The translations under genes and the position numbers were made by a program. A stretch of DNA of 61,030 bases from a virus, in the IMG/VR virus record IMGVR_UViG_3300045942_000039, positions 1 through 61,030 of that record, one strand, 5' to 3'. Positions 36,489 to 51,258 of this stretch are shown here, piece after piece; the first letter of the stretch is position 1; each line of letters starts with the position of its first letter. The notes under the pieces are model-generated. The model searched no databases. It saw nothing but the letters and a program-made list of their open reading frames with translations, and was not told the origin of the DNA.

Positions 36489-36538
36489 GGGCGTTCCTTC
36501 GTCGGTCATGGTGTCGATTCTTCCATGGGGGTACGACG

Positions 36539-36570
36539 AAGCCCCCGACCTGTGCGGAGGTCGGGGGCTT
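36539..36570 (-). terminator. hairpin AAGCCCCCGACC/GGTCGGGGGCTT
   Basis: 12-bp stem with an 8-nt loop, 6 nt after the 36577 stop. Confidence 0.6.
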
Positions 36571-36576
36571 GGCGTC

Positions 36577-36852
36577 TCACTCGGACTGGACCCGCCCGAG
36601 GGAATCGCGTCCCGGTTGGTGCTGCGCGCACAGCCCCGATTGGTGACGGGTGCCACGGTAGCACCGCGACGTCGGCGAGTGCATGTGCGTGCACCGCGGC
36701 GCTCGGGAGGTCCGGGGTCCGCCGCCGACCGTAGCGATCGGTGCGATGAGCTCGTCGGCGCGGACGCCGAGAGTCTGCAGCGCCGCGGCGGCCGAGGCCG
36801 TCCCGTCGTTCAGCCGGCGGATCGCAGCTGCTCGGGTTGCGGCGTCGGTCAC
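36577..36852 (-). CDS. hypothetical protein with Cys/His-rich C-terminus (91 aa)
   Basis: ORF track; RCTHMH...RCYRG...GLCAQH. Confidence 0.5.
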   Translation of the reverse strand: MTDAATRAAAIRRLNDGTASAAAALQTLGVRADELIAPIATVGGGPRTSRAPRCTHMHSPTSRCYRGTRHQSGLCAQHQPGRDSLGRVQSE

Positions 36853-37061
36853 CGAGACCTCTTCGGGTGGAGCGCGGTCTGCGCCTCGATCTCGTCGGCG
36901 AAGATGTCGAAGCCCTCCGCGGTGGCGTTTGCTCGGCGGACGTCGTCGATGTCGACGGGCACGTCGAACCCGGGCTCGGCCTTCTTGCGGAGCACTTCGG
37001 CGGTCTTCCGGGCGGCGGTCGCGATGCTTGCTGCGGTCAGCTTGGGGGTGGTGTCAGCCAT
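36849..37061 (-). CDS. hypothetical protein (70 aa)
   Basis: ORF track. Confidence 0.6.
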   Translation of the reverse strand: MADTTPKLTAASIATAARKTAEVLRKKAEPGFDVPVDIDDVRRANATAEGFDIFADEIEAQTALHPKRSR

Positions 37062-37070
37062 GGTGCCTCC

Positions 37071-37529
37071 TCAGGCGTAGGGGCTCGTGAGCCCGGTGAT
37101 GATCGCGCGGAGCCGTTCGGCGTGCCCGCGGGACGTGGTGGAGTGATTCTCGACGGCGGTGGCCGCGGCGTCCAGGGCCTCGGTCCACACGTCGTCGGCT
37201 GGTAGCTCGAGCTTCGGCTTCGACGGATCCGGGATCCAGTCGGGGCAGTACCGCTGCGCGAGGTCGCGGAGTTCGGGCGACGTGGCCCGGATCTCGGTGC
37301 GCACGCTGGACCGTGCGCCCTTCCGGTACCCGGCCGGCACGAGGGATGCCACGCCCCACGTCGCGGCCTGCGCGTCGAACGCGTACGTGATCCGCACCTC
37401 CCACACCTCGTAGAGCGTGATGTTCTGCGACACCGGGTCGGCGGCGTTCAGGTACATCGGCTCGTCGAGACGGTGGAGGGTGACTTCCTGACGCACGTAG
37501 ACGCTGGCGGGACGATCGAGCCACGGCAT
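37071..37529 (-). CDS. hypothetical protein (152 aa)
   Basis: internal ATG, TGATG overlap. Confidence 0.55.
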   Translation of the reverse strand: MPWLDRPASVYVRQEVTLHRLDEPMYLNAADPVSQNITLYEVWEVRITYAFDAQAATWGVASLVPAGYRKGARSSVRTEIRATSPELRDLAQRYCPDWIPDPSKPKLELPADDVWTEALDAAATAVENHSTTSRGHAERLRAIITGLTSPYA

Positions 37530-37831
37530 CAGCTGTCCCCCGTCCAGGAGTGATCGCCGTCGCCGCGCGCGACCGTGTTGCCGTCGAAGTACGCAGGGAG
37601 CGGTGACGACGTGATGGAGAGGTTCCCCGTCTGGGCGGCGACGCCTTTCGCGGGGACACGGAACCGCACGCTGTACGTGTACCACTCGCCGACGCGGAGC
37701 TCCGGGATGTCGACGACGCCGGGCCCGAGGAGGGACGGCGGAAGCAGCACGTGCGCGCGGACGAGCTTGGTCTTAGCTTCGACCAGATCCGCTTCGAGCT
37801 CGCGGATCCGGCGGGCCTTCTTGCCGAACAT
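37529..37831 (-). CDS. hypothetical protein (100 aa)
   Basis: ORF track. Confidence 0.6.
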   Translation of the reverse strand: MFGKKARRIRELEADLVEAKTKLVRAHVLLPPSLLGPGVVDIPELRVGEWYTYSVRFRVPAKGVAAQTGNLSITSSPLPAYFDGNTVARGDGDHSWTGDS

Positions 37832-38091
37832 CAGTAGGAGCCGATCTCGACGAGAGGGAACGTCGGAGCCGAACCGGACGGCAGGTCGTCGGAGAGCACG
37901 CCGCGGTTCTGGTCGACGTCCGTGCCGTCTTCGTCCGTCGCGACGGGGATGCCAACGTAGACGAGGTCGCCGCCGAAGCTCACGAACAGGAAGAACGGGT
38001 CGTTGTTGTCGTCACGGACGGCGAGCCAGGAGACGTCGTCCTGGTCGAAGCGGCTGCGGACGGTGTCGGTGTTTCCGAGCAGGGGGTTCAT
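37831..38091 (-). CDS. hypothetical protein (86 aa)
   Basis: internal ATG, ATGA overlap. Confidence 0.55.
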   Translation of the reverse strand: MNPLLGNTDTVRSRFDQDDVSWLAVRDDNNDPFFLFVSFGGDLVYVGIPVATDEDGTDVDQNRGVLSDDLPSGSAPTFPLVEIGSY

Positions 38092-38372
38092 TCGGTTCCT
38101 TCGATCGGGGTGGGGATGCCGCCCGAGGGGGCGACACGGGTGATGGTGCCGGAGGCGACGTGAGCCGACGAGTACGCGACGACGGTCCATTCGGGGTTCT
38201 GGCCTCCGGTCCAGGGGAGCCAGGTGTCGTCGCCGGCGCGGGTCCAGACGACGCCATTCGACCAGACGACCTGCGCGCCGCGGTGGCGCGGGAGCGAGAG
38301 GATGCCGTCGAGCTCAGACTGAGCGGCAGCGAGCTTGCGGCGCGCGTTGCGGAGCTCGCGGGGGTTACTCAC
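38088..38372 (-). CDS. hypothetical protein (94 aa)
   Basis: ORF track. Confidence 0.6.
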   Translation of the reverse strand: MSNPRELRNARRKLAAAQSELDGILSLPRHRGAQVVWSNGVVWTRAGDDTWLPWTGGQNPEWTVVAYSSAHVASGTITRVAPSGGIPTPIEGTE

Positions 38373-38727
38373 CGGGCACCTCGTCGAGGTTCTCGGGGAG
38401 CTCCCACAGGTGCAGGGTCCGCGGGTGGACGTTCACGAACTCGGCGCGCGGGGGGAGCATCATCGCCATGTGCACGCGGTCCGGGATGAACCGGTACCGG
38501 GCGTCGGCGATCTCGTCCCACGTGGGGAGCCGGGAGGAGTGGGACACGGACAGGTGCCAGAGGCCGTCGACTTCGCGGGAGCGGAGCGCGCGCAGTCGCC
38601 CGTCGGGCACGGACGCGTCCCACATGCCAGCGCCGGGGAGCGCGGCGATCGTCGACGGCGTATCCTGCTGGGTCCAGGCGGGCGTGATGTCGTGCCGGGT
38701 GCCCGGCGCCGCGGTGCCGAAGCTCAC
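38365..38727 (-). CDS. hypothetical protein (120 aa) with WHLSVSH...LPTWDEI motif
   Basis: GTGA overlap start inside track ORF 38365..39567. Confidence 0.55.
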   Translation of the reverse strand: MSFGTAAPGTRHDITPAWTQQDTPSTIAALPGAGMWDASVPDGRLRALRSREVDGLWHLSVSHSSRLPTWDEIADARYRFIPDRVHMAMMLPPRAEFVNVHPRTLHLWELPENLDEVPGE

Positions 38728-39188
38728 CGGAGAACCCCGGCGTCGGTGAGGTCGTCCCGGTCTTCGACGAGCGCGTGCCGGAAGAGGCAGGGCTCGCAGT
38801 ACCGGTCGGCCAAGTACCGCGCGGTCGGGGTGCGGCCCGTGCCGCCGTCCGAGCACCGGTACGTCGTGGAGATCTCGCACGGCAGCGTCCGCGCCAGGGA
38901 CTCGACGCGGGTTTCTATCCGGGACCAGCCGACGCCGTATCCGATCGAGGCGAGACGCTGCGCCTGCAGTTCGAGGAGGCCCGCCCGGATCTGGGCCTGG
39001 GACGCCGGGGCGAGCGCTGTGGCGATCTCGATGAACGGTCGGGGGGTGGTGGAGAGGGTCGCGTAGATGGAGGGCAGGAGGACGGCCACCATGGCTTCGT
39101 CGTCGACGGGCGCCGGCGGCGCCGGGACCGAGATCGCTTCGGCGGGACGGCGGCCGGCGAGGAGCGCGGCCCAGCGCGAGAGGGTCAC
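38724..39188 (-). CDS. putative DNA-binding protein (wHTH-like region plus C-x8-C...C-x2-C)
   Basis: FIEIATALAPASQAQIRAGLLELQAQRLAS; CEISTTYRC...CEPC. Confidence 0.5.
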   Translation of the reverse strand: MTLSRWAALLAGRRPAEAISVPAPPAPVDDEAMVAVLLPSIYATLSTTPRPFIEIATALAPASQAQIRAGLLELQAQRLASIGYGVGWSRIETRVESLARTLPCEISTTYRCSDGGTGRTPTARYLADRYCEPCLFRHALVEDRDDLTDAGVLR

Positions 39189-39577
39189 AGTCCCAGCCCC
39201 TCTCGGATCTGGTCGACGACGAATCCGAAGTCGACGGTCCTGCTCTCGTAGCCAGATTCGACCTCGCCAGTCGAGCCGTAGACGGCGATGAGGTTGGCGA
39301 TGCGCTGCTGCTCGACGAGCGCGAGGGTCGCGTGCACCTGGGCGGTGGCGAGGACTTGGGGCAGGGGGAGGCCGCCAATCTCGATCGAGTGGGCTGCAGC
39401 CCTCGTGAGGAGCTCGCCTGCGCCTTTCGCCCAGTCGATGCGAGCGTTTTCGCGGAGGTGCTCGCGGACGGCTTCGGCGAGGTCGGCGACCTCGGCGGGG
39501 AGCTCGTCGGCGGGGATGTTGTCGATCGCGCCTTCGAACTCGGTGAGCGCTCGCTCAAGGGGGTCACGGCTGGGCAT
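39185..39577 (-). CDS. hypothetical protein (130 aa), first gene after promoter copy 4
   Basis: ATG after the GGAAGGAAC SD of the conserved leader. Confidence 0.6.
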   Translation of the reverse strand: MPSRDPLERALTEFEGAIDNIPADELPAEVADLAEAVREHLRENARIDWAKGAGELLTRAAAHSIEIGGLPLPQVLATAQVHATLALVEQQRIANLIAVYGSTGEVESGYESRTVDFGFVVDQIREGLGL

Positions 39578-39632
39578 GGGTGTTCCTTCCGGTCGGGGCG
39601 CCGCGGGGTGCGGCTGGTGGCCCGTGTCTTTC

Positions 39633-39661
39633 ACACTATGGGGTAATTCTACCGGCGTCCA
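39633..39661 (-). promoter_or_regulatory. conserved phage promoter copy 4 (-35 TGGACG, TTACCCCA, -10 TAGTGT)
   Basis: motif family; directly after terminator 39668..39701. Confidence 0.65.
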
Positions 39662-39667
39662 ACGACG

Positions 39668-39701
39668 GAGCCCCCGCGCTCCGAGGTGGAGGCGGGGGCT
39701 C
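39668..39701 (-). terminator. hairpin GAGCCCCCGC/GCGGGGGCTC with inner CTCC/GGAG pairing
   Basis: 10-bp stem, 11 nt after the 39713 stop. Confidence 0.6.
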
Positions 39702-39712
39702 GAGGAGGTGGG

Positions 39713-39871
39713 TCAGTCGGCGTCGGAGTCAGGGCCGATCATCAGGAACGACTCGGCGCCTTTCTCGAGCGCGAATCCTGCCGCGACCGCGGCGAACCGC
39801 TCAGCGGCCGCGGCGATGACGGTGGCGTCGTCGGACACAACGGACAGGCCAACGCGCATTCGCTCAGGCAT
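39713..39871 (-). CDS. small hypothetical protein (52 aa; starts 39880 or 39859 also possible)
   Basis: hand translation MPERMRVGLSVVSDDATVIAAAAERF...; below the track cutoff. Confidence 0.4.
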   Translation of the reverse strand: MPERMRVGLSVVSDDATVIAAAAERFAAVAAGFALEKGAESFLMIGPDSDAD

Positions 39872-40271
39872 GGGCCTCATCCAGCCACGTTGCGCGGCGG
39901 AGGCGGCCGAGCACGGCGTGGAAGTGCTCGGACTGCGCTGCGGTGAATGCGATCATCGGGCCGCCTTGAATCACGCCGATCGACACCGCGGTCATGGTGG
40001 CGTCGTACTGGCTGAGCACGAAGTCGGCCGCGGCGGCGCGGTGCCCGGGTCGGGAGATCTTGCGGAACCAGACGAGCAGCGGGTTCTCCTCGAGCAGCCG
40101 CGCCTCGGGCGTGGCGTCCCGGCCGACGCGGGGCGTGTACGCGTAGTGCTCGCGGATGTGGTTCGGCAGCATCGCGTACGACGTCGGGGCGATGCGGTGC
40201 TCGACGCCGGCCGTCCAGCGGGAGTACGGCGTGGGGTCGAACGCGGGGCGTTCCGTCGAGGCGAACATCAT
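39864..40271 (-). CDS. hypothetical protein (135 aa)
   Basis: internal ATG, ATGA overlap. Confidence 0.55.
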   Translation of the reverse strand: MMFASTERPAFDPTPYSRWTAGVEHRIAPTSYAMLPNHIREHYAYTPRVGRDATPEARLLEENPLLVWFRKISRPGHRAAAADFVLSQYDATMTAVSIGVIQGGPMIAFTAAQSEHFHAVLGRLRRATWLDEAHA

Positions 40272-40693
40272 GCGTCGATCCCGCTGACCAGCTGGCGCAG
40301 CGCGTTGGTGACGCGGGTGAGCTCGACGCGTACGGCGTCCCGGCTCTCGGCGATCTCGCGCACGAACTTGTCGTAGACCTCGTCGCGCTCGAGGCGGACC
40401 CAGGGGGCGTCGCGCTGCAACTCCCACTGTGCGCGCTCGTTGCCGCCGTGGCCGCGGTAGATCATGCCGGTGCGGACGGACACCCAGACCCCGTCGCCGC
40501 ACGGGCAGGCGTAGAGCCGGTCCCGCACGAGTTCGACGGCCGCGGCGTCGGCGAGGGTCAGCTGGTCGTACTCGAAGCCAACGCGGATGCCGGTGCGCGC
40601 CGAGGTCTGCTCGTCGGTCTCGGCCTCGGGCTTGGGGCGGGCGGGGCTCTTCGGCGCGAGGCGCTCGCCGATGGGCTTGCGTTCTTCGGTCAC
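40268..40693 (-). CDS. hypothetical protein (141 aa)
   Basis: GTGA overlap start. Confidence 0.55.
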   Translation of the reverse strand: MTEERKPIGERLAPKSPARPKPEAETDEQTSARTGIRVGFEYDQLTLADAAAVELVRDRLYACPCGDGVWVSVRTGMIYRGHGGNERAQWELQRDAPWVRLERDEVYDKFVREIAESRDAVRVELTRVTNALRQLVSGIDA

Positions 40694-41133
40694 TGGTCTG
40701 CCTTTCGGATGTGGGTGAGTACGGCGAGGTCGGGCAGGAGCCGCGCACACGTCTGGATCATGAGGGTGAGGTGGCGGGCGAGCTCGTCGTCGTCGACGTC
40801 TACCCACCAGGTGCGCCATCCCGGGTGCTGCGGGTCGTCGGGGTAGCTGCGGAACACGCGCTGCACGACAGCCACTTCGCCGGGCTGCGGGAGCGTGCCG
40901 CCGTCGCCGTCGTGCTGGGAGAGGAGGGCGTTGATCGCGTCGATCACGTCCATGGAGTGCAAGACCATCCCGTCGGGCGAGATCTCGTCGCCGAGCACGT
41001 AGTAGCTGCTGTCGCCCTCGAGGCGGGGCTCGTGCCGCCACGGCTGACCGTCGAGGCGGCGCACGCCCCACTGATGCAGCACGCCGTCTTTGGTCTCTTC
41101 GTACGGGATGCGGAACGGTTCGAGGTCGGTCAC
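40690..41133 (-). CDS. hypothetical protein (147 aa)
   Basis: GTGA overlap start. Confidence 0.55.
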   Translation of the reverse strand: MTDLEPFRIPYEETKDGVLHQWGVRRLDGQPWRHEPRLEGDSSYYVLGDEISPDGMVLHSMDVIDAINALLSQHDGDGGTLPQPGEVAVVQRVFRSYPDDPQHPGWRTWWVDVDDDELARHLTLMIQTCARLLPDLAVLTHIRKADQ

Positions 41134-41429
41134 TGGTCGCCTGCTTTCTCGTCGGTCTTGAGGATGATGTCGTACGTGTTCTCTCGCACGCGGATCGCGC
41201 GGAGCAGCACGCCCGCGTGCTCGGGGCACCGGTGGAGGACGACGGTCTTCGTGTCACCCGGTCGGTCGGGGAGGAACGGGTTCGGCACCCGCGTCTTCGT
41301 CCACCCGTTCGGCGCGCCGCGCACCGCGAACAGGTCCGCCGGCGACCAGCCGAGGAAAGGCGACGGCGCAGCGTCCAACGTCATCGGGCACAGGGGCACG
41401 TCGCACTGGATCGAGACGGACGCGCTCAC
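41130..41429 (-). CDS. hypothetical protein (99 aa)
   Basis: GTGA overlap start. Confidence 0.55.
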   Translation of the reverse strand: MSASVSIQCDVPLCPMTLDAAPSPFLGWSPADLFAVRGAPNGWTKTRVPNPFLPDRPGDTKTVVLHRCPEHAGVLLRAIRVRENTYDIILKTDEKAGDQ

Positions 41430-41803
41430 CGGTTCGGATCCTTCCAGACCACGAAGCGCTCGTCGCCGTGAGCTTCGAGGGGAGGCGACTGCAGGAACGA
41501 CTCGGCTTCGTCCCACGTGCCTGCCTCCATGTCGTTCGCGACGCCGTCGATCTCACCCCACGTGTCGTCGTTCATGTCGTACACGTCGGCGTCGTCGTCG
41601 ATCGAGTCGTCGAGGAGGATCGGCGCGAACAGCGAGAGCCGCGGGGTGTCGTTGATCTCGAGCAGCACACCGGCGTGGGTGTCGGGGATGAGGTCGCGGA
41701 TCCGCTGGATGGCGGCGACGCGGAACACTTCCTGCGCGTCCCAGTACGCCTTGCGCGCGGTTTCGTACGCGGCGAACGCTGCAGCACTGTCGGCGGTCAT
41801 CAT
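41426..41803 (-). CDS. hypothetical acidic protein (125 aa)
   Basis: ATGA overlap start. Confidence 0.55.
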   Translation of the reverse strand: MMTADSAAAFAAYETARKAYWDAQEVFRVAAIQRIRDLIPDTHAGVLLEINDTPRLSLFAPILLDDSIDDDADVYDMNDDTWGEIDGVANDMEAGTWDEAESFLQSPPLEAHGDERFVVWKDPNR

Positions 41804-42438
41804 GCCGTCACCCCCGCGCGGATCTGCAGGGCGCGGAGCGCGGCGGCCTTGGCTTCGTCGGCGATCGACTGGGCCTCGTCGGCGCTGTACTCGTTGCGGA
41901 TCCAGTGGGCTCGGATGCCGCCGGCGGCCTGCGCGGCGATCTGCTCGTCGGTGAGGGGTTCGGGCGTGGTGGAGGAGTAGGCGGGATGCCCGGGGCTGTA
42001 GACGTCGCCCGACCACTGGTCGCGCCAGGGCCCGCCGACTTCGACGACGAGGCGTTCGTACAGGTCGCGGACCTCCTGCAGGAGCGCAATCTCGGCGTCA
42101 TTGCTGTCGCCCTCGGCGGCCTCGTACGTGTTGTCGATGTGGTGCCGGACGACGTCGAGGTCGCCGACGAGCGCGGCGAGGCGGGAGCGGCGGTCGCGGA
42201 TGATCGCTTCGGCGATGAGATCGCGGACCTGTGCGCCGTTGCGGTTCCAGTCGTCGCGGATGTGGTGGGCGTCGAGGGTCAGCTGCGCGACGTCCTCGGG
42301 GCGGTTCGCGGCGGGCCCGGTCTGGCGGCGGTCGTACGCGATCGCCTCGGTCGCGATGTTGAGGTCGCGTTCGTAGCCGACGCCGGCGAGGGCGTCAGCG
42401 CCGATGAAGTCGCGGGCGGTCTGTTCGGGGGTCTTCAC
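41800..42438 (-). CDS. hypothetical protein (212 aa)
   Basis: ORF track. Confidence 0.6.
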   Translation of the reverse strand: MKTPEQTARDFIGADALAGVGYERDLNIATEAIAYDRRQTGPAANRPEDVAQLTLDAHHIRDDWNRNGAQVRDLIAEAIIRDRRSRLAALVGDLDVVRHHIDNTYEAAEGDSNDAEIALLQEVRDLYERLVVEVGGPWRDQWSGDVYSPGHPAYSSTTPEPLTDEQIAAQAAGGIRAHWIRNEYSADEAQSIADEAKAAALRALQIRAGVTA

Positions 42439-42818
42439 GGTGTCGTTCCTTCGGTGAGGGCGTGGCGGATGCGGTGGAGGAGGTTGGACGCGGCGTCGCG
42501 CGCGTCGAGCACGGGCTCGAGGTCGTTGGCTTGTTCGGACTCGACTATCTCGGCGAGCACGGCGTCGATGTCGGCGAGGTGCGCGGATCGCAGCTGCTCG
42601 CGTTGCATGTCGAGTGCGTCGAGGATCATGGCGTCGATCTTTGAGTCGACCGGCGCGAGGACGAGAGCGAAGTAACGGCGTCGGACCTCAGCGGCGATTC
42701 GAGCGCCGCCAAAGGGAGTGGTGGAGGGCCAGTGGCCGGTGCGGTCGGCGTGGTCGCCAGCGTCTTCGACGTTGCGTTCGCCGCACGTGGAGCACGTGGG
42801 GAACTGCTCGGCGCTCAC
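42435..42818 (-). CDS. hypothetical protein (127 aa, N-terminal CSTCG)
   Basis: GTGA overlap start inside track ORF 42435..43076. Confidence 0.55.
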   Translation of the reverse strand: MSAEQFPTCSTCGERNVEDAGDHADRTGHWPSTTPFGGARIAAEVRRRYFALVLAPVDSKIDAMILDALDMQREQLRSAHLADIDAVLAEIVESEQANDLEPVLDARDAASNLLHRIRHALTEGTTP

Positions 42819-42922
42819 CGGCGGGCATCCCAGATCGCGGTCACGACGCTCACGCCAGCGAGCGCGAGGGCGACCCCGATGACCCAGGGGTTCGCGATGG
42901 TCCAGTCGGTGATCGCGGCCAT
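42815..42922 (-). CDS. small single-TM protein (35 aa)
   Basis: hand translation MAAITDWTIANPWVIGVALALAGVSVVTAIWDARR; GTGA overlap downstream. Confidence 0.45.
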   Translation of the reverse strand: MAAITDWTIANPWVIGVALALAGVSVVTAIWDARR

Positions 42923-42942
42923 GACGTCCGACGCGAAGGCGA

Positions 42943-43182
42943 TCACGAACGGTCCGCCGTCGCGAAGCGCGTGGCCTCGATCTCGGTGTCGCACACCGCG
43001 AGGACCGTGAACGCTTCACCAGGTGCGAGGTCTTCGAACACGGCGAGCGCGTCCGCGGCCGTGGCTTCGAACACACCGTCGTTCGTCTCGAGCACGAACC
43101 AACGCTCCGGGTTCGCCTTGATGAAGTCGGCGCTGTACCAGTACGGCAGGTTCGGGATGGTGGGGATGATGATGGTCGCCAT
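42943..43182 (-). CDS. hypothetical protein (79 aa), first gene after promoter copy 5
   Basis: ORF track; ATG after the GAAGGAAGGAAC SD. Confidence 0.6.
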   Translation of the reverse strand: MATIIIPTIPNLPYWYSADFIKANPERWFVLETNDGVFEATAADALAVFEDLAPGEAFTVLAVCDTEIEATRFATADRS

Positions 43183-43238
43183 GGCGATGTTCCTTCCTTC
43201 GCACCCCCGGGGCGGGGTTGGTGGTGTGCGGTGTTTTC

Positions 43239-43268
43239 ATACTATGGGGTAACGGGCACCCGCGTCCA
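43239..43268 (-). promoter_or_regulatory. conserved phage promoter copy 5 (-35 TGGACG, TTACCCCA, -10 TAGTAT)
   Basis: motif family. Confidence 0.65.
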
Positions 43269-43296
43269 GTCAACCACCCGTCAAACAACCCGATTC

Positions 43297-43311
43297 TGAG
43301 CACAATGCTCA
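43297..43311. promoter_or_regulatory. operator-like palindrome TGAGCA-CAA-TGCTCA
   Basis: perfect 6-bp arms; about 30 nt upstream of the -35 of promoter copy 5. Confidence 0.4.
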
Positions 43312-43331
43312 CCCGACCGGTTACCGGCCCG

Positions 43332-43354
43332 TGAGCAACCGAGACAACTGCTCA
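43332..43354. promoter_or_regulatory. operator-like inverted repeat TGAGCA-N11-TGCTCA
   Basis: same half-sites as 43297..43311; a third half-site CACAATGCTCA lies at 43376..43386. Confidence 0.35.
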
Positions 43355-43383
43355 ACAGAATCCGGCTCGCCGACGCACAATGC

Positions 43384-44034
43384 TCAGCGCCAAGTCATCC
43401 AGATCAGGAACGCGGCGTACGCAATCAAGCAAGTCACGATGAGCCCGACCCACGCCGTCTCCACCCGCCAGAACGCCCGCCAAATGTCGGCGAACGGCCT
43501 GCCCAGCCGGACGAGCTCACTCAACACCGCACGCCGAACCGGCCCTCTACGCGCGCGCGCGCGAGGCGAGACCGACCCCGCGCCGAACTTTTCGCCCATG
43601 GTGTTATCCGTGTCGTGGGGCGGGTAGTGCTTGTCGGGGTGGGGTCCGGGTGCGGGGTTCGGGTTGCGGAGGGTGTTCGTGAGGAGGTTGCGGCGGGTGG
43701 TGGCGAGGTCGGGGGGTGGGGGTGGCGTGTTGATGAGGGTGGGGCGGGTCCAGTGGCCGGCGGGGGGTGCGGGGATGCGGGCGACGCGGGTGCCGCGGGG
43801 GAGGGCGCGTTCGAGTGCGGCAATGGGGCTCTGTCGGCCGAGGGCGAGGAAGTCGCGGAAGACGTCGGCGGGGTGGGGGGCTTCGGGGTCGCGTGAGGCT
43901 TGGGCGATGGTGCGGATGTCGATGGCGGCGGTTTCGGGGTCGCGGTCGGGGTGGAGGATGCGGGCGCGGGCGGTGGCGACGGCGTCGTCGAAGTTGCGTT
44001 GCAGGGCGCGGTACTGCTTGCGGGTGAGGGTCAT
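43384..44034 (-). CDS. Pro-rich protein with C-terminal TM helix (216 aa)
   Basis: ATGA overlap start; WVGLIVTCLIAYAAFLIWMTW. Confidence 0.5.
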   Translation of the reverse strand: MTLTRKQYRALQRNFDDAVATARARILHPDRDPETAAIDIRTIAQASRDPEAPHPADVFRDFLALGRQSPIAALERALPRGTRVARIPAPPAGHWTRPTLINTPPPPPDLATTRRNLLTNTLRNPNPAPGPHPDKHYPPHDTDNTMGEKFGAGSVSPRARARRGPVRRAVLSELVRLGRPFADIWRAFWRVETAWVGLIVTCLIAYAAFLIWMTWR

Positions 44035-44288
44035 CGGGTGGGGCTCTCGGTGTCGATGAGCCGGAGCTCGAGGCGGATCGGGATGTCGGGCGGGAAGTCG
44101 CCGGCGCGGGTTTCGGTGAGCTCGGAGACGGTGTAGGTGTTCATCCCCCCGAAGAGGGAGCCGACGCCGTTGGCAATCGCGAGCTCTCCGTCGACGACGG
44201 TGACGATCAGCTGTTCTCCGTCGATGGAGTCGACGTCGACGGGGCCTTTCGAGGTGTCGGCAACGAGGACGAGGCTGGGGATCTTCAT
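44031..44288 (-). CDS. hypothetical protein (85 aa)
   Basis: ATGA overlap start. Confidence 0.55.
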   Translation of the reverse strand: MKIPSLVLVADTSKGPVDVDSIDGEQLIVTVVDGELAIANGVGSLFGGMNTYTVSELTETRAGDFPPDIPIRLELRLIDTESPTR

Positions 44289-44614
44289 GCGGGGGTTCCG
44301 TTCTGGGAGCGCGGGATGCGGGGCGAGCTTGTTGGGCACGTGTCGAGGTGTCGGTCAAACGCGGATCCGGGCCAGACGTCGCCGTCGATCGAGACGTCGA
44401 CGCCGGGCTGCAGGCCGATCGCGAAGGGGTACTCGCACTTCTCGGGGGAGCAGCCGATCTGCTGGGTGACGATGCGGCGCGCGAGGCGGCGGGCGAGCTC
44501 GTCGAGGAGGAACACGGCGCGGTCCCGCTGGGCGGTTGTCGACCGTGAGGTGAGGCGCGTCTCTTGGGCCTCGGTCTGCAGTTCGGCGTCGGTCATGGTG
44601 TGCAGCTGCTTCAT
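44285..44614 (-). CDS. hypothetical protein (109 aa)
   Basis: ORF track. Confidence 0.55.
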   Translation of the reverse strand: MKQLHTMTDAELQTEAQETRLTSRSTTAQRDRAVFLLDELARRLARRIVTQQIGCSPEKCEYPFAIGLQPGVDVSIDGDVWPGSAFDRHLDTCPTSSPRIPRSQNGTPA

Positions 44615-44895
44615 GCGGGGACTCCCTGATTTGATGTGGCGTTTCTTTCACGGTGGGCTCTGACGCGAGGGCGGCAATCGGCGGTGTTCGCCGCGGTGCA
44701 CTCGGGGCAGTGGCATCCGTAGTTCTTGTAGCCGTTCGCGGTGCCGTGGACGTACGACGGCATGTTCTGGCGGCGGAGCTCGCGACGGTCGGCGCAGTAG
44801 ACGCGGTGGGCGGTCTTGCACGCGGGGCACCCGGTGGCGCCGCGGCATCCTTGGTCGTACCGGCGCTTCGTGCCGTGCGGGGCTAGGTCAATCAC
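44611..44895 (-). CDS. protein with two HGT-x-Y-x-GC-x-C-x2-C repeats (zinc-finger-like; ATG 44919 is an alternative start)
   Basis: HGTKRRYDQGCRGATGCPACK and HGTANGYKNYGCHCPECT. Confidence 0.5.
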   Translation of the reverse strand: MIDLAPHGTKRRYDQGCRGATGCPACKTAHRVYCADRRELRRQNMPSYVHGTANGYKNYGCHCPECTAANTADCRPRVRAHRERNATSNQGVPA

Positions 44896-45220
44896 CGTGC
44901 GCCTCGTGCTGATGAACATGGAGGTCGGCGAACAGCGCGCGCATTCTGGACCATCCACAGGGGCAGGAGACGAAGCCGTAGGTCTCGCCGTCGGCGGTTT
45001 CGTTGCGGTGGTTCGGGTCTTCGTCGTCGTCGGCGGGGTCGCGTTCCCACGTGACCTTTGGCCGCCGCGCGACAAACAGGTACGAGAGGTCTTCGTGCAC
45101 GGCCTGCATCCGCTCGAGGTCGCGGTAGGCGTCCTCGCGGACAACGGTCGACGTGCCGGAGAACGCGACGACGTTGCCGTTGCCGGCTTCGTAGGCGACG
45201 CGGTACTCGAAGTCGCTCAT
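44888..45220 (-). CDS. hypothetical protein (110 aa)
   Basis: ATGA overlap start. Confidence 0.55.
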   Translation of the reverse strand: MSDFEYRVAYEAGNGNVVAFSGTSTVVREDAYRDLERMQAVHEDLSYLFVARRPKVTWERDPADDDEDPNHRNETADGETYGFVSCPCGWSRMRALFADLHVHQHEAHGD

Positions 45221-45330
45221 GCCGGCGCTTCCCATCCGCACTCGGGGCAAGACCACATGGCGACTTCGGTGTCGTCTTCGGCGTCGTACAGGATCGGATC
45301 CGGCTCGCCACAGTTCGGGCACTCAGACAT
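45217..45330 (-). CDS. mini zinc-ribbon protein (37 aa)
   Basis: CPNC-x20-CPEC; overlaps both neighbours. Confidence 0.5.
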   Translation of the reverse strand: MSECPNCGEPDPILYDAEDDTEVAMWSCPECGWEAPA

Positions 45331-45913
45331 CGGCGTTCTCTTTCGTGGTGGGGATGAGGCGGGACAGGGGGCCTTCGTGCTCGCCGGGCGGGCATCCGTA
45401 CGGGCCGCACGAGTGGCCGGGGCGAGGCGGGTCGACTTCGATGAGCCAGTCGCCGGCGATCTGCCAGTCGGTCTTGCGGAGCCCGAGGCCGCCGGTGTGC
45501 GGGATCGGGTCGGCGAGCGCGCGGGGGTTCTCGAGCACAAGGTGGAACTGCCCCATCTCGGACCAGGGCGTGCAGTCGCCATGACATCCGGTGAGCCCGA
45601 AGAGAGGATCGGTCGGGTCGTGCACGTCGACGAGGTCGACGACGCCGATGATGTGCCCGGTCAGCATCCAGGGGGATCCCTTGAGCGGGTCGGTGTTCTG
45701 CTCGGTGTACGCCGCTGCCGCGGTGCGGAACTCGGGGTGGATCCGTGAGGGCGTGGCGACAGCGTCGGTGTCGATCTGGCTCGAGGCGTGGATGAGCACG
45801 GGGCCGCGGTAGGGGCCGAGGCTGCGTGAGCGGTTCTCGACGGTCTTGCCGGCGTGGATGATGCTCCACGCCCACGGCTGGCGGACGGTGAGGATGCGGA
45901 GGTGGTCGGTCAC
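45323..45913 (-). CDS. ASCH (PUA-like) domain protein with Cys/Pro-rich C-terminal extension
   Basis: LTVRQPWAWSIIHAGKTVENRS N-terminal signature. Confidence 0.65.
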   Translation of the reverse strand: MTDHLRILTVRQPWAWSIIHAGKTVENRSRSLGPYRGPVLIHASSQIDTDAVATPSRIHPEFRTAAAAYTEQNTDPLKGSPWMLTGHIIGVVDLVDVHDPTDPLFGLTGCHGDCTPWSEMGQFHLVLENPRALADPIPHTGGLGLRKTDWQIAGDWLIEVDPPRPGHSCGPYGCPPGEHEGPLSRLIPTTKENADV

Positions 45914-45982
45914 GGTCGTTCCTTCGTGCGCGGTGTGCGCCTCTGTGACGCGTTGGGCGTCCTGGTGGAGTGGGAAGAGGTG

Positions 45983-46040
45983 GGCCCCCGATATCTCGCG
46001 AGGACGGGGCGGGGAGCGCCGGGGCGAGGTATCGGGGGCC
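45983..46040 (-). terminator. long imperfect hairpin GGCCCCCGATA...TATCGGGGGCC after metK
   Basis: 11-bp outer stem plus inner CTCGC/GCGAG pairing; 9 nt after the metK stop. Confidence 0.5.
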
Positions 46041-46049
46041 GAGGGTGGA

Positions 46050-47267
46050 TCAGATGAATGCGCGGAGGGTCTCGGCCATGTCGGTGCGCTCCCACGTGAA
46101 GTCGTCGAGCTCGCGGCCGAAGTGGCCGTACGCGGCGGTCTGCTGGTAGATGGGCCGGAGGAGGTCGAGGCGGTCGATGATCGCGGCGGGGCGGAGGTCG
46201 AACGCGTGGGATACGGCGGACGCGATGCGGTCGTCGCTGTGGATGCCGGTGCCGAAGGTGTCGACGTAGAGGCCGACGGGCTCGGCCTTGCCGATCGCGT
46301 AGGCGACCTGCACCTCGGCGCGGCTTGCGAGGTCGGCGGCGACGATGTTCTTCGCGACCCAGCGCATCGCGTAGGCGGCGGAGCGGTCGACCTTGGACGG
46401 ATCCTTCCCGGAGAACGCGCCGCCTCCGTGGCGGCCGACGCCGCCGTACGTGTCGACGATGATCTTCCGGCCGGTCAACCCGGCGTCGCCCATGGGTCCG
46501 CCGACGATGAACGGGCCCGCGGGGTTGACGATGACGCGGACGCCGCCTGTGCGGATGTTGTCGGGCACGTGCTCGGCAAGCACGGGGTCGATGACCTGCG
46601 CCGTGACGAGCTCGGTGAGCTCGCGAATGCTGGTGCCTTCACTGTGCTGCGTCGAGACGACGATCGTGTCGATCGCGTCGATGACGCCGTACGGGTCGAC
46701 GGACACGGTGACCTGCGTCTTCCCGTCGGGGCGGAGCGGGCCAGTGACGCCGAGGCGGTGGCGGACGTCCTCAAGACGCTCGGCGAGGCGGTGCGCGAGG
46801 TACGGCGCGAGGGGGTAGAGCTCGGGGGTCGTGGTGTCGGCGTAGCCGAACATGAGGCCCTGGTCGCCGGCGCCCTGCGCCCCGTACTGGTCGACGTCGA
46901 CGGCCGGCTCGCCGCCGCGGCGCCAGTCGCGGAGCTCGAGCGCGGTGTTCACGCCGCCTGCAATGTCGGGGGACTGCTGGCCGATGGCGACGTTGACGCC
47001 CGCGGTGCGCCCGTCGAAGCCGTACGCGCTCGAGGTGTAGCCGATGCCGGTGACGACCTCGCGGACGATCTGGGGGATCTCGACGTAGGCGGACGTGGTG
47101 ACCTCGCCCATGACGTGCACCTGACCGGTGGTGACGGCGGTCTCGACGGCGACGCGCGCGCCAGGGTCTTGGGCGAGGATCGCGTCGAGGATCGCGTCGC
47201 TGATCTGATCGCACATCTTGTCGGGGTGGCCGCTGGTGACGGACTCGGACGTGAACAGGCGGGTCAT
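46050..47267 (-). CDS. metK: S-adenosylmethionine synthetase
   Basis: 405 aa; [56 protein letters not shown] signatures, full length. Confidence 0.93.
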
Positions 47268-47605
47268 GCGTTCTCCTGGTGGGTGAGCCCGGGCACGCTT
47301 TCGGCGAGCTCACGGGCGGCGTAGTGGATGGAGGGCCTGGACATCCAGAACGCGACGGCGTCGCGCTGGCGGTCCTCCGGGCCGTGCGGAGGTGTGAGCA
47401 CGATGCCGCGCGCGGGGTGGCGGATGACGCCGGCGTCGTGGCGCGTGCCGTCGGGCATCCAACACGTGACGTCGATGTCGTTGCCTTCGCGGATGAACTC
47501 GAGGCGGACGCCATCGTCGCGGACGTGCGAGGCGAGCAGGTCGACTACGGACGCCGCACGTTGGAACGTGTTCGTCTCAGTCCAGTCGCGGAGCAGGAAC
47601 GTCAT
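47264..47605 (-). CDS. hypothetical protein (113 aa)
   Basis: internal ATG; ATGA overlap with the metK start. Confidence 0.55.
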
Positions 47606-48050
47606 GGGCCACCTCCTCCACGAGCTCGGCGAGGATGTCGGCGTCGACGAGAAGCAGCGTGCGCCGGGAGTACCAGCGGGGAGCGGGAGAGTCGGAGAAC
47701 TGGATCTTGTAGACGCGGAGGCCGCTGTCGCGGGTGCGCGAGATGACGTCGACGCGGCCCGTGACGGCCTCGCGGTATCGCTCGGAGTTGGGGTCGTCCC
47801 ACGAGCGGCGGACGACGATCGACCCGATCTCGAGCGGGGGGAACGGCGTGTAGTGCACGACGTGCTCGTCGGGGACACGGATGGTGTCGACGAGATTGCG
47901 GTTGCGGAAGTCTTCCATCTGCAGGGTGACCCACCCCCGCGCGCCGCGGGCCTGGATGAGCCAGCCGACGTACGTGCGGAGGTGGGTCGAGATGACCACT
48001 TCGGTGCCGGGCTCGACGCCGACGAGGTCATGGGCGTGCGCGGTCTTCAT
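47577..48050 (-). CDS. hypothetical protein (157 aa)
   Basis: ORF track. Confidence 0.6.
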   Translation of the reverse strand: MKTAHAHDLVGVEPGTEVVISTHLRTYVGWLIQARGARGWVTLQMEDFRNRNLVDTIRVPDEHVVHYTPFPPLEIGSIVVRRSWDDPNSERYREAVTGRVDVISRTRDSGLRVYKIQFSDSPAPRWYSRRTLLLVDADILAELVEEVAHDVPAPRLD

Positions 48051-48439
48051 CCGTAGATCGTGTCACCGAAGATGGCGGTCTGGACCATGCCGTCGCCGAC
48101 GTCGGAGTCGCCGGCCAGGTCGCCGTCCCGGATCTCGCGGATCCACCAGTCGGGCCCGTACTTCACCGTCCAGGCCATGAGCGCGTCGCGCAGCTGGTCG
48201 TGGGTGAGGGTGAACCAGCGCTCACCCGAGGGGTGGTCGTCCTTGCACTCTTCGCTGAGGCGGATCCGGTAGGTCTCCGCGTCGTCGTCGACTTCCGCGC
48301 GGTCGGCCCAGTAGCGGATGCCGAACCCGGCGCACTCGATGAGGTTGACCATCACGTCTTTCGTGAGGTCGACGTCGATGGTGAACTGCCGCACGGTTGC
48401 GGGCTTGGCTTCGGGCTTTGCAGGCGTGGTGGTGCTCAT
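48047..48439 (-). CDS. hypothetical protein (130 aa), first gene after promoter copy 6
   Basis: ATG after the GAAGGGAC SD; the track start at 48493 lies inside the -10 element. Confidence 0.6.
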   Translation of the reverse strand: MSTTTPAKPEAKPATVRQFTIDVDLTKDVMVNLIECAGFGIRYWADRAEVDDDAETYRIRLSEECKDDHPSGERWFTLTHDQLRDALMAWTVKYGPDWWIREIRDGDLAGDSDVGDGMVQTAIFGDTIYG

Positions 48440-48491
48440 GGTGTGTCCCTTCGTCGCATGCGCCCCGGTGGGGCTGGTGGATGCACGATTC

Positions 48492-48521
48492 ATACTATGG
48501 GGTAAAGCGGGCTGGCGTCGA
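48492..48521 (-). promoter_or_regulatory. conserved phage promoter copy 6 (-35 TCGACG, TTACCCCA, -10 TAGTAT)
   Basis: motif family. Confidence 0.65.
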
Positions 48522-48522
48522 G

Positions 48523-49158
48523 TCAGAGGCGCTCGTAGCTGACGCCTCCCCGGGGGCCGACCTTGACGAGCACGTCGGGGTGGGAGTCGCCGATGTCGGG
48601 GACCGCAGTGGACGAGCGGTAGAGCGCCATCTGCACGTCGTCGGACTGCGCACCGACGAACGACGTCGTCGACTCGACGATCGTGCCAGCGCGGTACTCG
48701 CGGACGGTGACGCCGGCGCGGCCGTCGCGGATCGCGGCGACAAGCTCGCGGCCCTCCTGGATCGACCCGAGAACGAACGGGGTCTCATTGATGGTCGACA
48801 GGCTGGGCGCGTAGGCGTAGCCGAAGTAGCGCTCTTCGACGAGCACGTCAGCGTCCGGTGCTTCGGCGCCGGGCGGGGCCACCAGCGTCGTCCCGTGCTC
48901 AGAGATCACTTCGACGGATGCCGTGAAGTCGTGGAGGTAGACGTGCAGCGTGTAGGTGCCGTCGGCGTTGCGAACGCCGTGCACGGTGCCGATGGTGTTC
49001 TTCGTGTCGTCGTCGAAGTCGACGCGGCCGAAGTCGTCGGGCTCGGCGGCGCGGGTGCCGCCTGTTCCCGCGCGCCACTCGTCGCCGCGGCGGCCAACCC
49101 AGATCAGGGGCTCGGCGCGCTCGCCCGTGTCGTACGGGGTGCGGTTGCTGGTGTTCAT
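48523..49158 (-). CDS. hypothetical protein (211 aa)
   Basis: ATGA overlap start. Confidence 0.55.
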   Translation of the reverse strand: MNTSNRTPYDTGERAEPLIWVGRRGDEWRAGTGGTRAAEPDDFGRVDFDDDTKNTIGTVHGVRNADGTYTLHVYLHDFTASVEVISEHGTTLVAPPGAEAPDADVLVEERYFGYAYAPSLSTINETPFVLGSIQEGRELVAAIRDGRAGVTVREYRAGTIVESTTSFVGAQSDDVQMALYRSSTAVPDIGDSHPDVLVKVGPRGGVSYERL

Positions 49159-49718
49159 CGTTCGGCCTTTCGGGGGAGGGTCTGCAGGGCTGCGCGGAGC
49201 GCGTCGAGACGGTCGGCGGGGATGGTGCGGGCAAGCCAGGCGCTTCCCCACCGGTACCCGGTTTCGGGGCAAACGACGTTGTCGATGCGCCAGCTGGACA
49301 ACGCATTGCTGCGCCCGTAGCGGCCGCGCTCGGGGTTCGCTTCGATGTACGCGTCGATGACCTCGGAGCCGGGGTTGAGCATCTCGGGCGTCATGTGATC
49401 GCACGCCGCGTTGAGCGTGTTCAGGTGGAACTCGGCCCACATGTCTTCGACGACGCGGGCGGCGTTCGGCGCTTTCGGGATGACCCGGTCTTCGGGCGAG
49501 GTCTGCCCAGCGCCTCGCAGATACCGGTCGGCGGCGAGCTCCGGATGCCGCGGGCTCGCGAGCACGGTCCACGAGATCCCGAGCTCGACGGGCCGAGGGC
49601 CCTGGCTGTGGTCGGTGAACGTCGTGCGCTCGAGGTGCTCGGGCTCGCGGATCTCGACGTGCGCCCACACGCGGTGCCCCTCGATGGTCTTCCCGAGGAA
49701 GTAGTCGTTGTCGGTCAT
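49155..49718 (-). CDS. hypothetical protein (187 aa)
   Basis: ATGA overlap start. Confidence 0.55.
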   Translation of the reverse strand: MTDNDYFLGKTIEGHRVWAHVEIREPEHLERTTFTDHSQGPRPVELGISWTVLASPRHPELAADRYLRGAGQTSPEDRVIPKAPNAARVVEDMWAEFHLNTLNAACDHMTPEMLNPGSEVIDAYIEANPERGRYGRSNALSSWRIDNVVCPETGYRWGSAWLARTIPADRLDALRAALQTLPRKAER

Positions 49719-50272
49719 GCTGATGCCTCTCGGATCATGTAGTGCGTGTTCGTGAAGAGGGTGCCGTCGAGCAGGACGTCGAGCGAGTAGCCACTCGGGC
49801 CGACGTTCGACTCGTGGAACGGCCAGACGTCGAACACGAGCCGGTCGTTGTGCACCCACGCCAAAACGATGTCGGCGTCGTCGCGATCGTCAGAGTGGTA
49901 GTTCCGCGACTTGGGCCCCTTGCCGCCCCACTTTTCGAGGAACACGGACGCTTCGGGGTACCTGACGATCGGGACGAGCTCGCCACCCCCGTCGATGCCT
50001 TCGGCCAGGACCGCGTGCAGGGTGACGTCTTCCGGGTACCCGCCGTCTTCGTCGTACACGCTGATGACGTACGTGCGCGGGTCGCCGGCGTTGACCCGGT
50101 CACCGAGTATGCCGTTCGTCATGAGCGCGACGCGCATGGATTCGGCGGCGCCGAGGGCGCGGCCTTGGACCTCAGTGCCGTTGGCGTCGATGCTGAACTT
50201 GGCCGAGTCGCCGTTGCCGAAGACGACCTCGCCGGTGACGGAGATGACGGTGCTGCGAGTGTCGATTGCCAC
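49715..50272 (-). CDS. hypothetical protein (185 aa)
   Basis: ORF track. Confidence 0.6.
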   Translation of the reverse strand: MAIDTRSTVISVTGEVVFGNGDSAKFSIDANGTEVQGRALGAAESMRVALMTNGILGDRVNAGDPRTYVISVYDEDGGYPEDVTLHAVLAEGIDGGGELVPIVRYPEASVFLEKWGGKGPKSRNYHSDDRDDADIVLAWVHNDRLVFDVWPFHESNVGPSGYSLDVLLDGTLFTNTHYMIREASA

Positions 50273-50275
50273 GGC

Positions 50276-50737: not shown

Positions 50738-50794
50738 GATGTTCCTTCCTGGGCCCGCGCGGTGCGGTTGGTGGTGGCCCGTGTTGATGTTTTT

Positions 50795-50823
50795 ACACTA
50801 TGGGGTAAAACGGCTGGCGTCTA
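50795..50823 (-). promoter_or_regulatory. conserved phage promoter copy 7 (-35 TAGACG, TTACCCCA, -10 TAGTGT)
   Basis: motif family; shares an extra 20 nt (AAAAACATCAACACGG) with copy 8. Confidence 0.65.
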
Positions 50824-51231: not shown

Positions 51232-51258
51232 GGTGGTTCCTCTCGGGGCCGGAAATGG

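Follow-up and report, generated by a model that had tools for sequence, protein, structure and literature searches.

The window analysed here is the whole of IMG/VR virus record IMGVR_UViG_3300045942_000039, a 61,030-nucleotide (61 kb) stretch of viral DNA with 68% G+C in which the minus strand carries nearly all genes. Among cultured phages its nearest relative is ValentiniPuff, a lytic singleton that infects Microbacterium, with 64.5% amino acid identity between the terminases. The element under study is a structured 5' leader that lies between a repeated promoter and the first gene of each of eight units on the minus strand, and the copy at 43183-43238 is taken as the focal example.

Promoters, leaders and the units they serve

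The minus strand carries eight exact copies of the -10 block CCCATAG(W)NT, at 849, 5225, 12081, 39633, 43239, 48492, 50795 and 52439. All eight copies have a -35-like element, T(G/T)GAC(G) or TTGCAC, positioned 17-18 nt 5' of the TAGNNT hexamer, and this element and spacing identify SigA-type promoters. Transcription from actinobacterial SigA-type promoters usually begins at the seventh nucleotide after the -10 hexamer, which would assign the conserved GAA(A/T)AC to the promoter discriminator. This geometry predicts that the transcripts probably start about 6 nt later than the initial annotation of the window had assumed. The 45-55 nt that it gave for the leader is correct when counted from the base after the -10 hexamer, and the 5' untranslated region (UTR) is about 6 nt shorter if the seventh nucleotide is +1. 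The features of the focal copy are as follows, with bit scores and E-values taken from the covariance model R2 described below.

43263-43268, minus strand: -35-like hexamer TGGACG, 18 nt 5' of TAGTAT, with the element and spacing found in all eight copies
43239-43244, minus strand: -10 hexamer TAGTAT within the conserved TTACCCCATAGTAT, an exact pattern match
43231-43238, minus strand: GAAAACAC, the discriminator and first transcribed bases; promoter geometry predicts +1 at about the seventh nucleotide and a tail of about 2 nt
43200-43230, minus strand: bulged hairpin CGCAC / ACCACCAA / CCCCG-CCC-CGGGG / GTGCG, found by the helix parser and in the centroid fold (R2 30.0 bits, E = 1e-4)
43218-43225, minus strand: 5'-side bulge ACCACCAA with CACCA at 43219-43223, defined by its invariance in the alignment and a mean P(unpaired) of 0.93
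43205-43217, minus strand: inner hairpin CCCCG-CCC-CGGGG, from the parser and the alignment
43189-43196, minus strand: GAAGGAAC, an extended, SAS-like (start-associated sequence) Shine-Dalgarno sequence 6 nt 5' of the ATG, one of 18 such sites on the strand
42943-43182, minus strand: first gene of the focal unit, a 79-residue orphan with its ATG at 43180-43182 and no Pfam or PHROG family match

All eight promoters are followed by the same leader layout. An A/C-rich 5' tail leads into an outer helix, a 5'-side bulge that contains CACCA, an inner G+C hairpin, a purine spacer and the ribosome-binding site (RBS) GAAGGRAC, which ends 3-6 nt before the start codon and not 5-8 nt before it as first described. 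The outer helix of the window leaders has 4-5 bp and is missing from the 5.2-kb copy; the inner stem has 4-6 bp and closes a C-rich loop of 3-5 nt. The bulged hairpin is typically about 32 nt long (range 28-42 nt), with a bulge of 5-9 nt and helices of 3-9 bp. A bulge on the 3' side is almost never seen in the leaders, which allows the two helices to stack on each other and to extrude ACCACCA. The loops vary between copies (CAC, CCC, ACC, ACCCC, AUUCC, AGACG and others), and the box has the form (A/U)(C/U)CACCA. The sequence CACCACCA occurs 12 times, compared with 1.8 expected. The tail is 81% A+C, the box 96% A+C, the loops 53% C and the spacer to the RBS 84% purine, and G is almost absent from the unpaired tail, bulge and loop. 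The 3' end of the hairpin lies 5.1 ± 2.7 nt from the AGG and 0-8 nt from the RBS. The predicted 5' tails cluster around two lengths, about 1 nt in 12 leaders and about 8 nt in 14, and the two aligned leaders that have no outer helix, those of the 5.2-kb copy and of ValentiniPuff gene 18, carry the box at the predicted extreme 5' end. The box does not keep a fixed distance from the -10 hexamer; the spacing varies by about 15 nt. Every accepted copy lies on the coding strand, 3' of a -10 hexamer. The other seven copies in the window, each given from the -35 element to the start codon, are listed below.

52379-52467, minus strand: 52.4-kb copy; hairpin at 52398-52425, CGGC/ACCACCA/CCCC-ATTCC-GGGG/GCCG (R2 31.3 bits)
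50735-50823, minus strand: 50.8-kb copy; hairpin at 50751-50780, GGGC/CACCACCAA/CCGC-ACCGC-GCGG/GCCC (R2 33.1 bits)
48437-48521, minus strand: 48.5-kb copy; hairpin at 48457-48487, CGTGC/ATCCACCA/GCCCC-ACC-GGGGC/GCATG (R2 27.8 bits)
39575-39661, minus strand: 39.6-kb copy; hairpin at 39596-39623, GGGC/CACCA/GCCGC-ACCCC-GCGGC/GCCC (R2 16.5 bits, E = 0.47), with a weak score because the bulge is short
12022-12110, minus strand: 12-kb copy; hairpin at 12039-12066, CGGC/ACCACCA/CCCCG-CAC-CGGGG/GCCG (R2 30.0 bits)
5171-5254, minus strand: 5.2-kb copy, 5' of the RecT gene; CACCACCAA at the predicted 5' end, hairpin GGCCC-TCACC-GGGCC, no outer helix and no covariance-model match
788-877, minus strand: 0.85-kb copy; hairpin at 806-836, CGGC/ACCACCA/CCGCGC-CCCG-GCGCGG/GCCG (R2 32.0 bits)

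The eight leader intervals of the initial annotation are all correct, one behind each minus-strand promoter. The hairpins it listed are present too, with the correction that the 0.8-kb stem is CCGCGC/GCGCGG with a loop of 4 nt and not 2 nt; the 50.8-kb hairpin, which was not on its list, is CCGC-ACCGC-GCGG. The box that it gave as CACCACC(A) reads CCACCAG at 39.6 and 48.5 kb and CACCACCA in the other six copies, and only CACCA is invariant.

Five of the promoter-leader copies lie inside an array of mostly orphan small genes that covers about 18 kb (approximately 34800-52400, minus strand) between the capsid protease and the major capsid gene. ValentiniPuff has the same odd layout, with a long array of small orphan genes in the same place. 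Its array consists mostly of orphams, and the phage is reported to be lytic and to have no repressor or integrase (PMC7302621). Terminator-like hairpins stand 5' of the 52.4-, 43.2- and 39.6-kb copies and also of the 12-kb copy outside the array. With its promoter-leader copies and terminator-like hairpins, the orphan array looks like a series of moron-like cassettes. Six of the eight units begin with an orphan gene, one with an open reading frame (ORF) of 57 residues and one with RecT. The units served by leaders are non-structural, and three of them sit in the recombination and replication arm. A Pfam scan of the 83 ORFs of the window matched 32 families, and the statements of absence made below refer to the 25 of these 32 that were listed. 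Families present include WhiB, helix-turn-helix proteins, RecT, YqaJ, SSB and S-adenosylmethionine synthetase.

A ninth exact -10 block, CCCATAGTGT, is located at 10250-10259 on the plus strand, just 5' of a minus-strand start at about 10226. No box, hairpin or RBS is found downstream of it, and it may be an antisense or divergent promoter. A similar promoter is seen in a chromosomal locus of the Mycobacterium/Actinomycetota genomes L068, L072 and L074 and of L044, L054 and L058, where a conserved promoter-like (a/g)CTTGTC, 17 nt and CCATAGTGTGACCCA are followed by CAACACCA and ATCAAATATCAAC. The -10 block of this locus closely resembles that of the phage, which suggests that the phage promoter may imitate a class of host promoter.

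Covariation of the leader helices

The comparison set was the DNA around eight uncultured terminase relatives together with ValentiniPuff. The closer uncultured relatives, found in public assemblies, have terminases 71-82% identical to that of the window. The leader layout is common to the window, ValentiniPuff, L025, L027, L032, L033, L034, L036, L037, L047 and L055. There are three copies in L025, six in L027 and four in L032, and L033, L034 and four metagenomic contigs also carry leaders. ValentiniPuff has its own promoter, TCATACCCTAGTATGAA, followed by the leader 5' of genes 8, 13, 18, 33, 40, 83 and 109. In all, about 35 leaders were found across at least 10 phage genomes or contigs, and their helix sequences differ.

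Twenty-eight leaders were placed in a hand-built, N-padded alignment with explicit structure (A2), in which the helices were defined by a custom helix-finding script. CACCA is invariant in 28/28 leaders. The 17 helix columns are 98.6% paired compared with 58.5% when partners are shuffled, changes have occurred on both sides of 13 of the 17 pairs, and sliding the partner by 1-3 columns lowers pairing to 37-52%. The script finds the two-helix layout in 26/28 leaders. With CACCA kept in place and its flanks shuffled, the mean falls to 2.4/28 (maximum 6), and of the 114 other CACCA sites in the window 18 have the layout. Minimum free energy structures from RNAfold, which are independent of the script, contain the bulged hairpin with CACCA unpaired in 22/28 leaders and in 0.31/28 (maximum 1) after shuffling. 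The box is unpaired with a probability of 0.93 (0.69 shuffled), and the RBS with a probability of 0.71 (0.56 shuffled). The initial annotation had placed the box unpaired between two helices, and the 5'-side bulge is that arrangement.

A covariance model built from the N-padded seeds (R1) was weak and its matches were mixed with noise, and a second model (R2) was rebuilt from the top matches of R1. In 228 kb, R2 gave 28 matches at E<0.05, every one of them on the coding strand. Of these, 27 are promoter-associated leaders, 13 of them outside the set used to build the model, and one, at L001 1645, is a false positive in a ParB-like gene. A second match at the homologous ParB motif, L025 8658, scored below this cut-off (E = 0.22). 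Both lie inside the ParB-like gene at its G-H-H-R motif and were rejected as leaders. Pairing in the R2 alignment is 90.7% compared with 58.3%, double changes are present in 11 of 11 pairs, and the slid controls give 35-48%.

The initial annotation had read compensatory changes among the window copies as a sign of selection on RNA structure. That reading holds for the larger set of about 35 leaders, and the covariation check by structural alignment shows that the stems of homologous leaders in related phages vary with compensation. The architecture and the comparative evidence lead to the conclusion that the fold of the leader is under selection as RNA and not as sequence alone. The leader is a cis-acting, strand-specific, promoter-proximal RNA element beside the RBS, in which an invariant single-stranded CACCA is held in a covarying scaffold.

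The RBS has a wider distribution than the hairpin. GAAGGRAC stands 5' of 18 start codons on the minus strand, and GAAGGAAC occurs 14 times compared with 1.1 expected. Ten of the 18 sites belong to internal genes that have neither a promoter nor a hairpin. GAAGGAAC/GAAGGRAC had been described as a feature of the leader; it is the general strong, over-conserved start-associated RBS of the phage and is not leader-specific. The hairpin tracks the promoter and the 5' end, being present at 8/8 promoters and at 0/10 internal GAAGGRAC sites. The distant relatives L030 and L028 keep the promoter and the RBS; L030 has the box without a hairpin, and L028 has no leader element. The modularity of the leader is real. 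The box of L030 is unstructured and lies a few nucleotides 5' of the same RBS, which suggests that the box works as single-stranded RNA near the RBS. The stretch at 51867-51916 (minus strand) had been put forward as a copy without a promoter. It consists of CACCACCA and a 4-bp stem, GCCC-ACACC-GGGC, with no outer helix, no GAAGGAAC, a folding z-score of -0.53 and no R2 match at E<=5. It is indistinguishable from chance, and the separability of the element from the promoter does not follow from it.

Three further observations concern the box. Several first genes, in the window (48427-48434 and 52366-52373, minus strand) and in ValentiniPuff (genes 8 and 94), open with ATG-(AGC/GAC)-ACC-ACC-ACG, and this second CACCACC just past the start codons could reflect Thr-Thr codon usage or be part of the same signal. 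In L027, the box and its flank read G(G/C)GAUCACCACC at 16178-16211, 19986-20019 and 21518-21551, with GAUCACCACC common to all three. The 3' end of 16S rRNA is GGAUCACCUCC, and two of these three leaders match it at 10 of 11 bases. A role for the box as an anti-Shine-Dalgarno sequester was considered, as CACCACC resembles the CACCUCC of the 16S 3' end and the L027 leaders read GGAUCACCACC, and was rejected; the box is not complementary to GAAGGAAC.

Described elements and possible functions

Database searches returned no counterpart of the leader. Rfam 15, a covariance-model search that the initial annotation had proposed, gave no matches at gathering thresholds across the whole window, and at E<=5 the 39400-52600 region gave three unrelated sub-threshold matches on the other strand. 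A terminase-based scan of IMG/VR gave a single match at 27% identity, and a scan of IMG/VR with the promoter pattern gave chance matches only, in low-G+C contigs. BLAST of one promoter and leader against GenBank phages found no match, and megablast of 8 kb found only a 40-bp match to ValentiniPuff. A promoter-box-RBS scan of 185,579 bacterial genomes selected 12 loci. None of the 12 is a true copy, which indicates that there is no prophage or host version of the element in this collection. No published description of the leader motif was found, and a survey of Microbacterium phages lists repeats for clusters EC, EF, EG and EI and mentions no ValentiniPuff motif (PMC7302621). The structured leader motif is real, reproducible and apparently undescribed, and so far only lytic phages of the ValentiniPuff type are known to carry it. 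Within the actinophage theme of promoter- and start-associated motifs, it is a candidate for a new RNA family.

The nearest described system is the SAS and extended SAS (ESAS) of Cluster K mycobacteriophages, with SAS/ESAS-like sequences in Cluster EF Microbacterium phages (PMC3203893, PMC11373665, PMC7302621). Both systems have a repeated, over-conserved RBS motif in one orientation, 3-9 nt before a subset of start codons, represented here by the 18 copies of GAAGGRAC(AG), and in both a longer conserved block with a SigA-like promoter stands 5' of roughly half of the copies. The SAS itself is a 13-bp asymmetric sequence, GGGATAGGAGCCC in Cluster K or GGGAAAGGACCCC in EF, that is unrelated to GAAGGAAC, and GAAGGRAC is therefore analogous to the SAS and not a member of it. 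The ESAS is an imperfect pair of 17-bp inverted repeats that is conserved in sequence and overlaps the SigA-like promoter; departures from it are uncompensated, and its authors found an mRNA hairpin unsupported (PMC3203893, PMC11373665). The helices described here, in contrast, lie 3' of the -10, vary freely, are compensated and are joined by an invariant CACCA bulge, and the leader is not an ESAS. The 18-bp TAGaCTATaGGTgTaAgC of Cluster EC is, like the repeat of the window, asymmetric, in one orientation and confined to short intergenic gaps 5' of genes that stand among or after the structural genes, and it resembles the -10 region CCATAGTGTAA of the window. It lies 21-30 bp upstream of start codons and is reported as a sequence repeat only, with no box, hairpin or covariation (PMC7302621). 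The leader is also distinct from the L5-type stoperator, a 13-bp asymmetric repressor-binding DNA site of temperate phages. Only 5 nt are invariant in the leader, and no integrase family is among the 25 families listed of the 32 in the Pfam scan of the window.

Several RNA elements share parts of the leader anatomy. Like lambda nut, the leader is a short RNA element right after a promoter with a linear box 5' of a hairpin, but it has no boxA consensus (CGCUCUUUA-like) and its loops are unconserved, unlike boxB. HK022 put, which acts in cis on RNA polymerase, comprises two adjacent stem-loops of about 70 nt, whereas the leader forms a single bulged hairpin of 28-42 nt; in sequence and structure it is neither a nut nor a put site. 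HIV-1 TAR is likewise a bulged hairpin at the 5' end of a transcript that is recognized through its bulge. The nut, put and TAR elements are promoter-proximal RNA recruitment elements. The leader differs from all three in that it abuts the RBS, and an N-, Q- or Tat-like factor was not identified, although proteins of the N type are small and diverse. An intrinsic terminator or attenuator does not describe the leader, because the hairpin is followed by a spacer of 84% A+G and the RBS, and a terminator scan flags none of the leaders. The 5' stabilisers of ompA, aprE, SP82 (polypurine) and cryIIIA (STAB-SD) resemble it in having a 5'-proximal hairpin followed by a purine-rich Shine-Dalgarno sequence. 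Such stabilisers are used on highly expressed or phage mRNAs, place the stem a few nucleotides from the 5' end and need no conserved unpaired sequence, whereas the leader has an invariant bulge. Measured against the 0-4-nt spacing of ompA and aprE, the tails predicted from promoter geometry are at most 3 nt in 12/26 leaders and 5-11 nt in 14/26. The operators of T4 RegA, the MS2 and PP7 coat proteins and Escherichia coli thrS are small hairpins with unpaired recognition nucleotides at or just 5' of an RBS, and one factor can control several mRNAs through them. The leader departs from the MS2 operator in having a bulge of 5-9 nt in place of a single bulged A and in leaving the start codon outside the hairpin. 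By analogy with these systems, the leader may work as a 5' stabiliser plus enhancer or as a translational operator.

Our preferred reading, held tentatively, is that the leader may boost expression of the first gene of each unit after transcription by exposing CACCA and the RBS, shielding the 5' end and offering CACCA to a host factor. The element would act after initiation, raising and coordinating expression of the first genes. The helices would lock away G-rich and C-rich stretches and so leave the box and the RBS unpaired, and a hairpin at or near the predicted 5' end would hinder 5'-end-dependent decay by RNase E or RNase J. The CACCA bulge, one short helix away from the RBS, would be contacted in a sequence-specific way by a factor that the cell contains before infection, and the simplest partner would be the 30S subunit or one of its associated proteins. 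Pfam matched no known RNA-binding domain in the 83 ORFs of the window, and Pfam and PHROG matched none in the first genes of the units. The absence of a recognisable phage RNA-binding domain favours a host partner.

A number of results weigh against this reading or against the selected fold on which it builds. Folding energies of nine sequences are not exceptional relative to dinucleotide shuffles (z = -1.5 to 0.0). Unguided MAFFT alignment of the eight window leaders followed by RNAalifold gave no consensus structure, which is attributed to a sequence alignment that sets the variable helices out of register; it is for this reason that the explicit N-padded structural alignment and the parser controls were used. 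CACCA is present within 60 nt upstream of 7 of the 10 internal GAAGGRAC sites of the window compared with an 11% background (p = 2e-5). This enrichment is not replicated in ValentiniPuff, where 1 of 9 sites has the box, and a general box-RBS coupling was dropped. No ribosomal partner for CACCA was found. A pure stabiliser or insulator would need no invariant pentamer, and about half of the predicted 5' tails, at 5-11 nt, are longer than a classical protective stem-loop at the 5' terminus would allow. A repressor operator accounts for this anatomy just as well.

In that alternative, the leader is the operator of a post-transcriptional regulon, and a phage or host protein bound to the CACCA bulge blocks or gates the 30S subunit and shuts off the whole promoter class. 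An invariant pentamer in a variable scaffold is what is classically expected of an RNA hairpin that binds a protein, only 0-8 nt separate the end of the hairpin from the RBS, every copy of one promoter class carries the element, and the mostly orphan genes of the phage could include an unrecognised RNA-binding protein. We nevertheless regard an operator as rather unlikely, given that no known RNA-binding domain was seen, the loop sequences are not conserved, and no candidate gene co-varies with the presence of the element in the partial loci compared. The leader could instead act co-transcriptionally on RNA polymerase, as part of an antitermination or pause complex that reads through the terminator-like hairpins between cassettes. 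Its strictly promoter-proximal position (8/8 promoters and 0/10 internal RBSs), the linear box 5' of a hairpin as in boxA-boxB, the terminator-like hairpins 5' of several promoter copies, and the arrangement of genes on one strand with late genes 3' of the cassette array are consistent with this role. It is quite improbable, however, because a promoter on each cassette makes read-through redundant, the element is tied closely to the RBS, the box is not boxA-like and the loops lack the conservation of boxB, put RNA has two stems where the leader has one hairpin of about 32 nt, and no N- or Q-like protein was detected in the 83 ORFs.

A processing site was weighed as well, in which actinobacterial RNase E cuts the ACCACCA bulge or the A/C-rich tail and removes the 5' triphosphate, so that the inner hairpin becomes the start of the mRNA. 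The mycobacterial enzyme favours unpaired, C-rich RNA (RN|CNU) and cuts 5' of C, and its sites are concentrated in 5' UTRs (PMC10641625). The bulge of the leader is likewise unpaired and rich in C, and AA|CAU occurs in some tails. Cleavage here is distinctly improbable. The box has no U at +3 of the reported motif, the invariant CACCA is more specific than a loose RNase E preference, and the cut would yield the 5' monophosphate that RNase E favours (bioRxiv 10.64898/2026.04.06.716707), which would normally give faster decay. The remaining alternative places the constraint in the DNA or denies it: CACCA would be the site of a DNA-binding factor or part of the promoter, with the hairpins as incidental G+C palindromes, or the block would be a copied recombination linker. 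Promoter and box always occur together, the folding energies of single leaders do not stand out, the cassettes are strongly mosaic with an array in ValentiniPuff of mostly orphams (PMC7302621), and the conserved repeats of other actinophages are read as DNA sites (PMC11373665). The helices, on the other hand, differ in nearly every copy and stay complementary, with all 11 pairs doubly changed in the R2 alignment and pairing of 35-48% in its slid controls. Neither the conservation of a DNA site nor simple copying predicts compensated helices, the box-to-(-10) distance varies by about 15 nt, and shuffled flanks almost never yield the architecture. An explanation at the DNA level or one without function is very improbable.

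It is conceivable, although on balance doubtful, that the CACCA-bulged hairpin is the recognition element of an unknown RNA-directed control system of Actinobacteria and their phages. If so, one form would be a leader that recruits ribosomes or polymerase, through which early and moron transcripts of the phage outcompete host mRNAs, and in the other form the hairpin would be the operator for a new RNA-binding regulator encoded among the orphan genes of the phage. Either form would be a post-transcriptional regulon defined by an RNA tag behind a shared promoter. Gene regulation in actinobacteriophages is largely uncharted, and 15 years of cataloguing the SAS, ESAS and EC/EG/EI repeats have yielded no mechanism. 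For the ESAS an RNA structure was expressly discounted, whereas the leader, with its covariation and unpaired pentamer, is a concrete and easily mutated RNA target that comes with 3-8 natural variants per phage. It also marks one expression class among the genes of a mostly orphan phage, and the compact promoter-leader-RBS cassette of about 90 nt could serve for expression in high-G+C Actinobacteria.

Other genes of the window

The capsid maturation protease (52516-53652, minus strand; Peptidase_S78_2) is fused to a 2',5' RNA ligase/LigT-type 2H phosphoesterase domain. This unusual fusion is present in the window and in all relatives inspected. Some 2H phosphoesterases degrade cyclic-nucleotide immune signals. 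Within the orphan array, 46050-47267 (minus strand) encodes a full-length S-adenosylmethionine synthetase, MetK, with N-terminal, central and C-terminal domains (E down to 4e-67) and without a promoter copy of its own.

A tRNA-like gene is located at 60641-60711 on the minus strand (context 60617-60740), directly 5' of the GTG of a 461-residue DAM-like/GNAT-like gene. It has a 7-bp acceptor stem (GCGGCGC/GCGCCGC), the T-arm GGGTTCAAGTCC and TCCA encoded at its 3' end. Its anticodon loop, CAGCAGA, is abnormal, with A replacing U33, and ARAGORN labels the gene 'tRNA-???'. The element is found in the same place in L025, L027 and L028.

A WhiB-like protein with a CxxCxxxxxC motif (Pfam Whib, E = 1e-8) is encoded at 7851-8240 on the minus strand. 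Actinobacterial WhiB proteins bind region 4 of SigA, and the WhiB-like protein of the window could act on the repeated SigA-type promoter.

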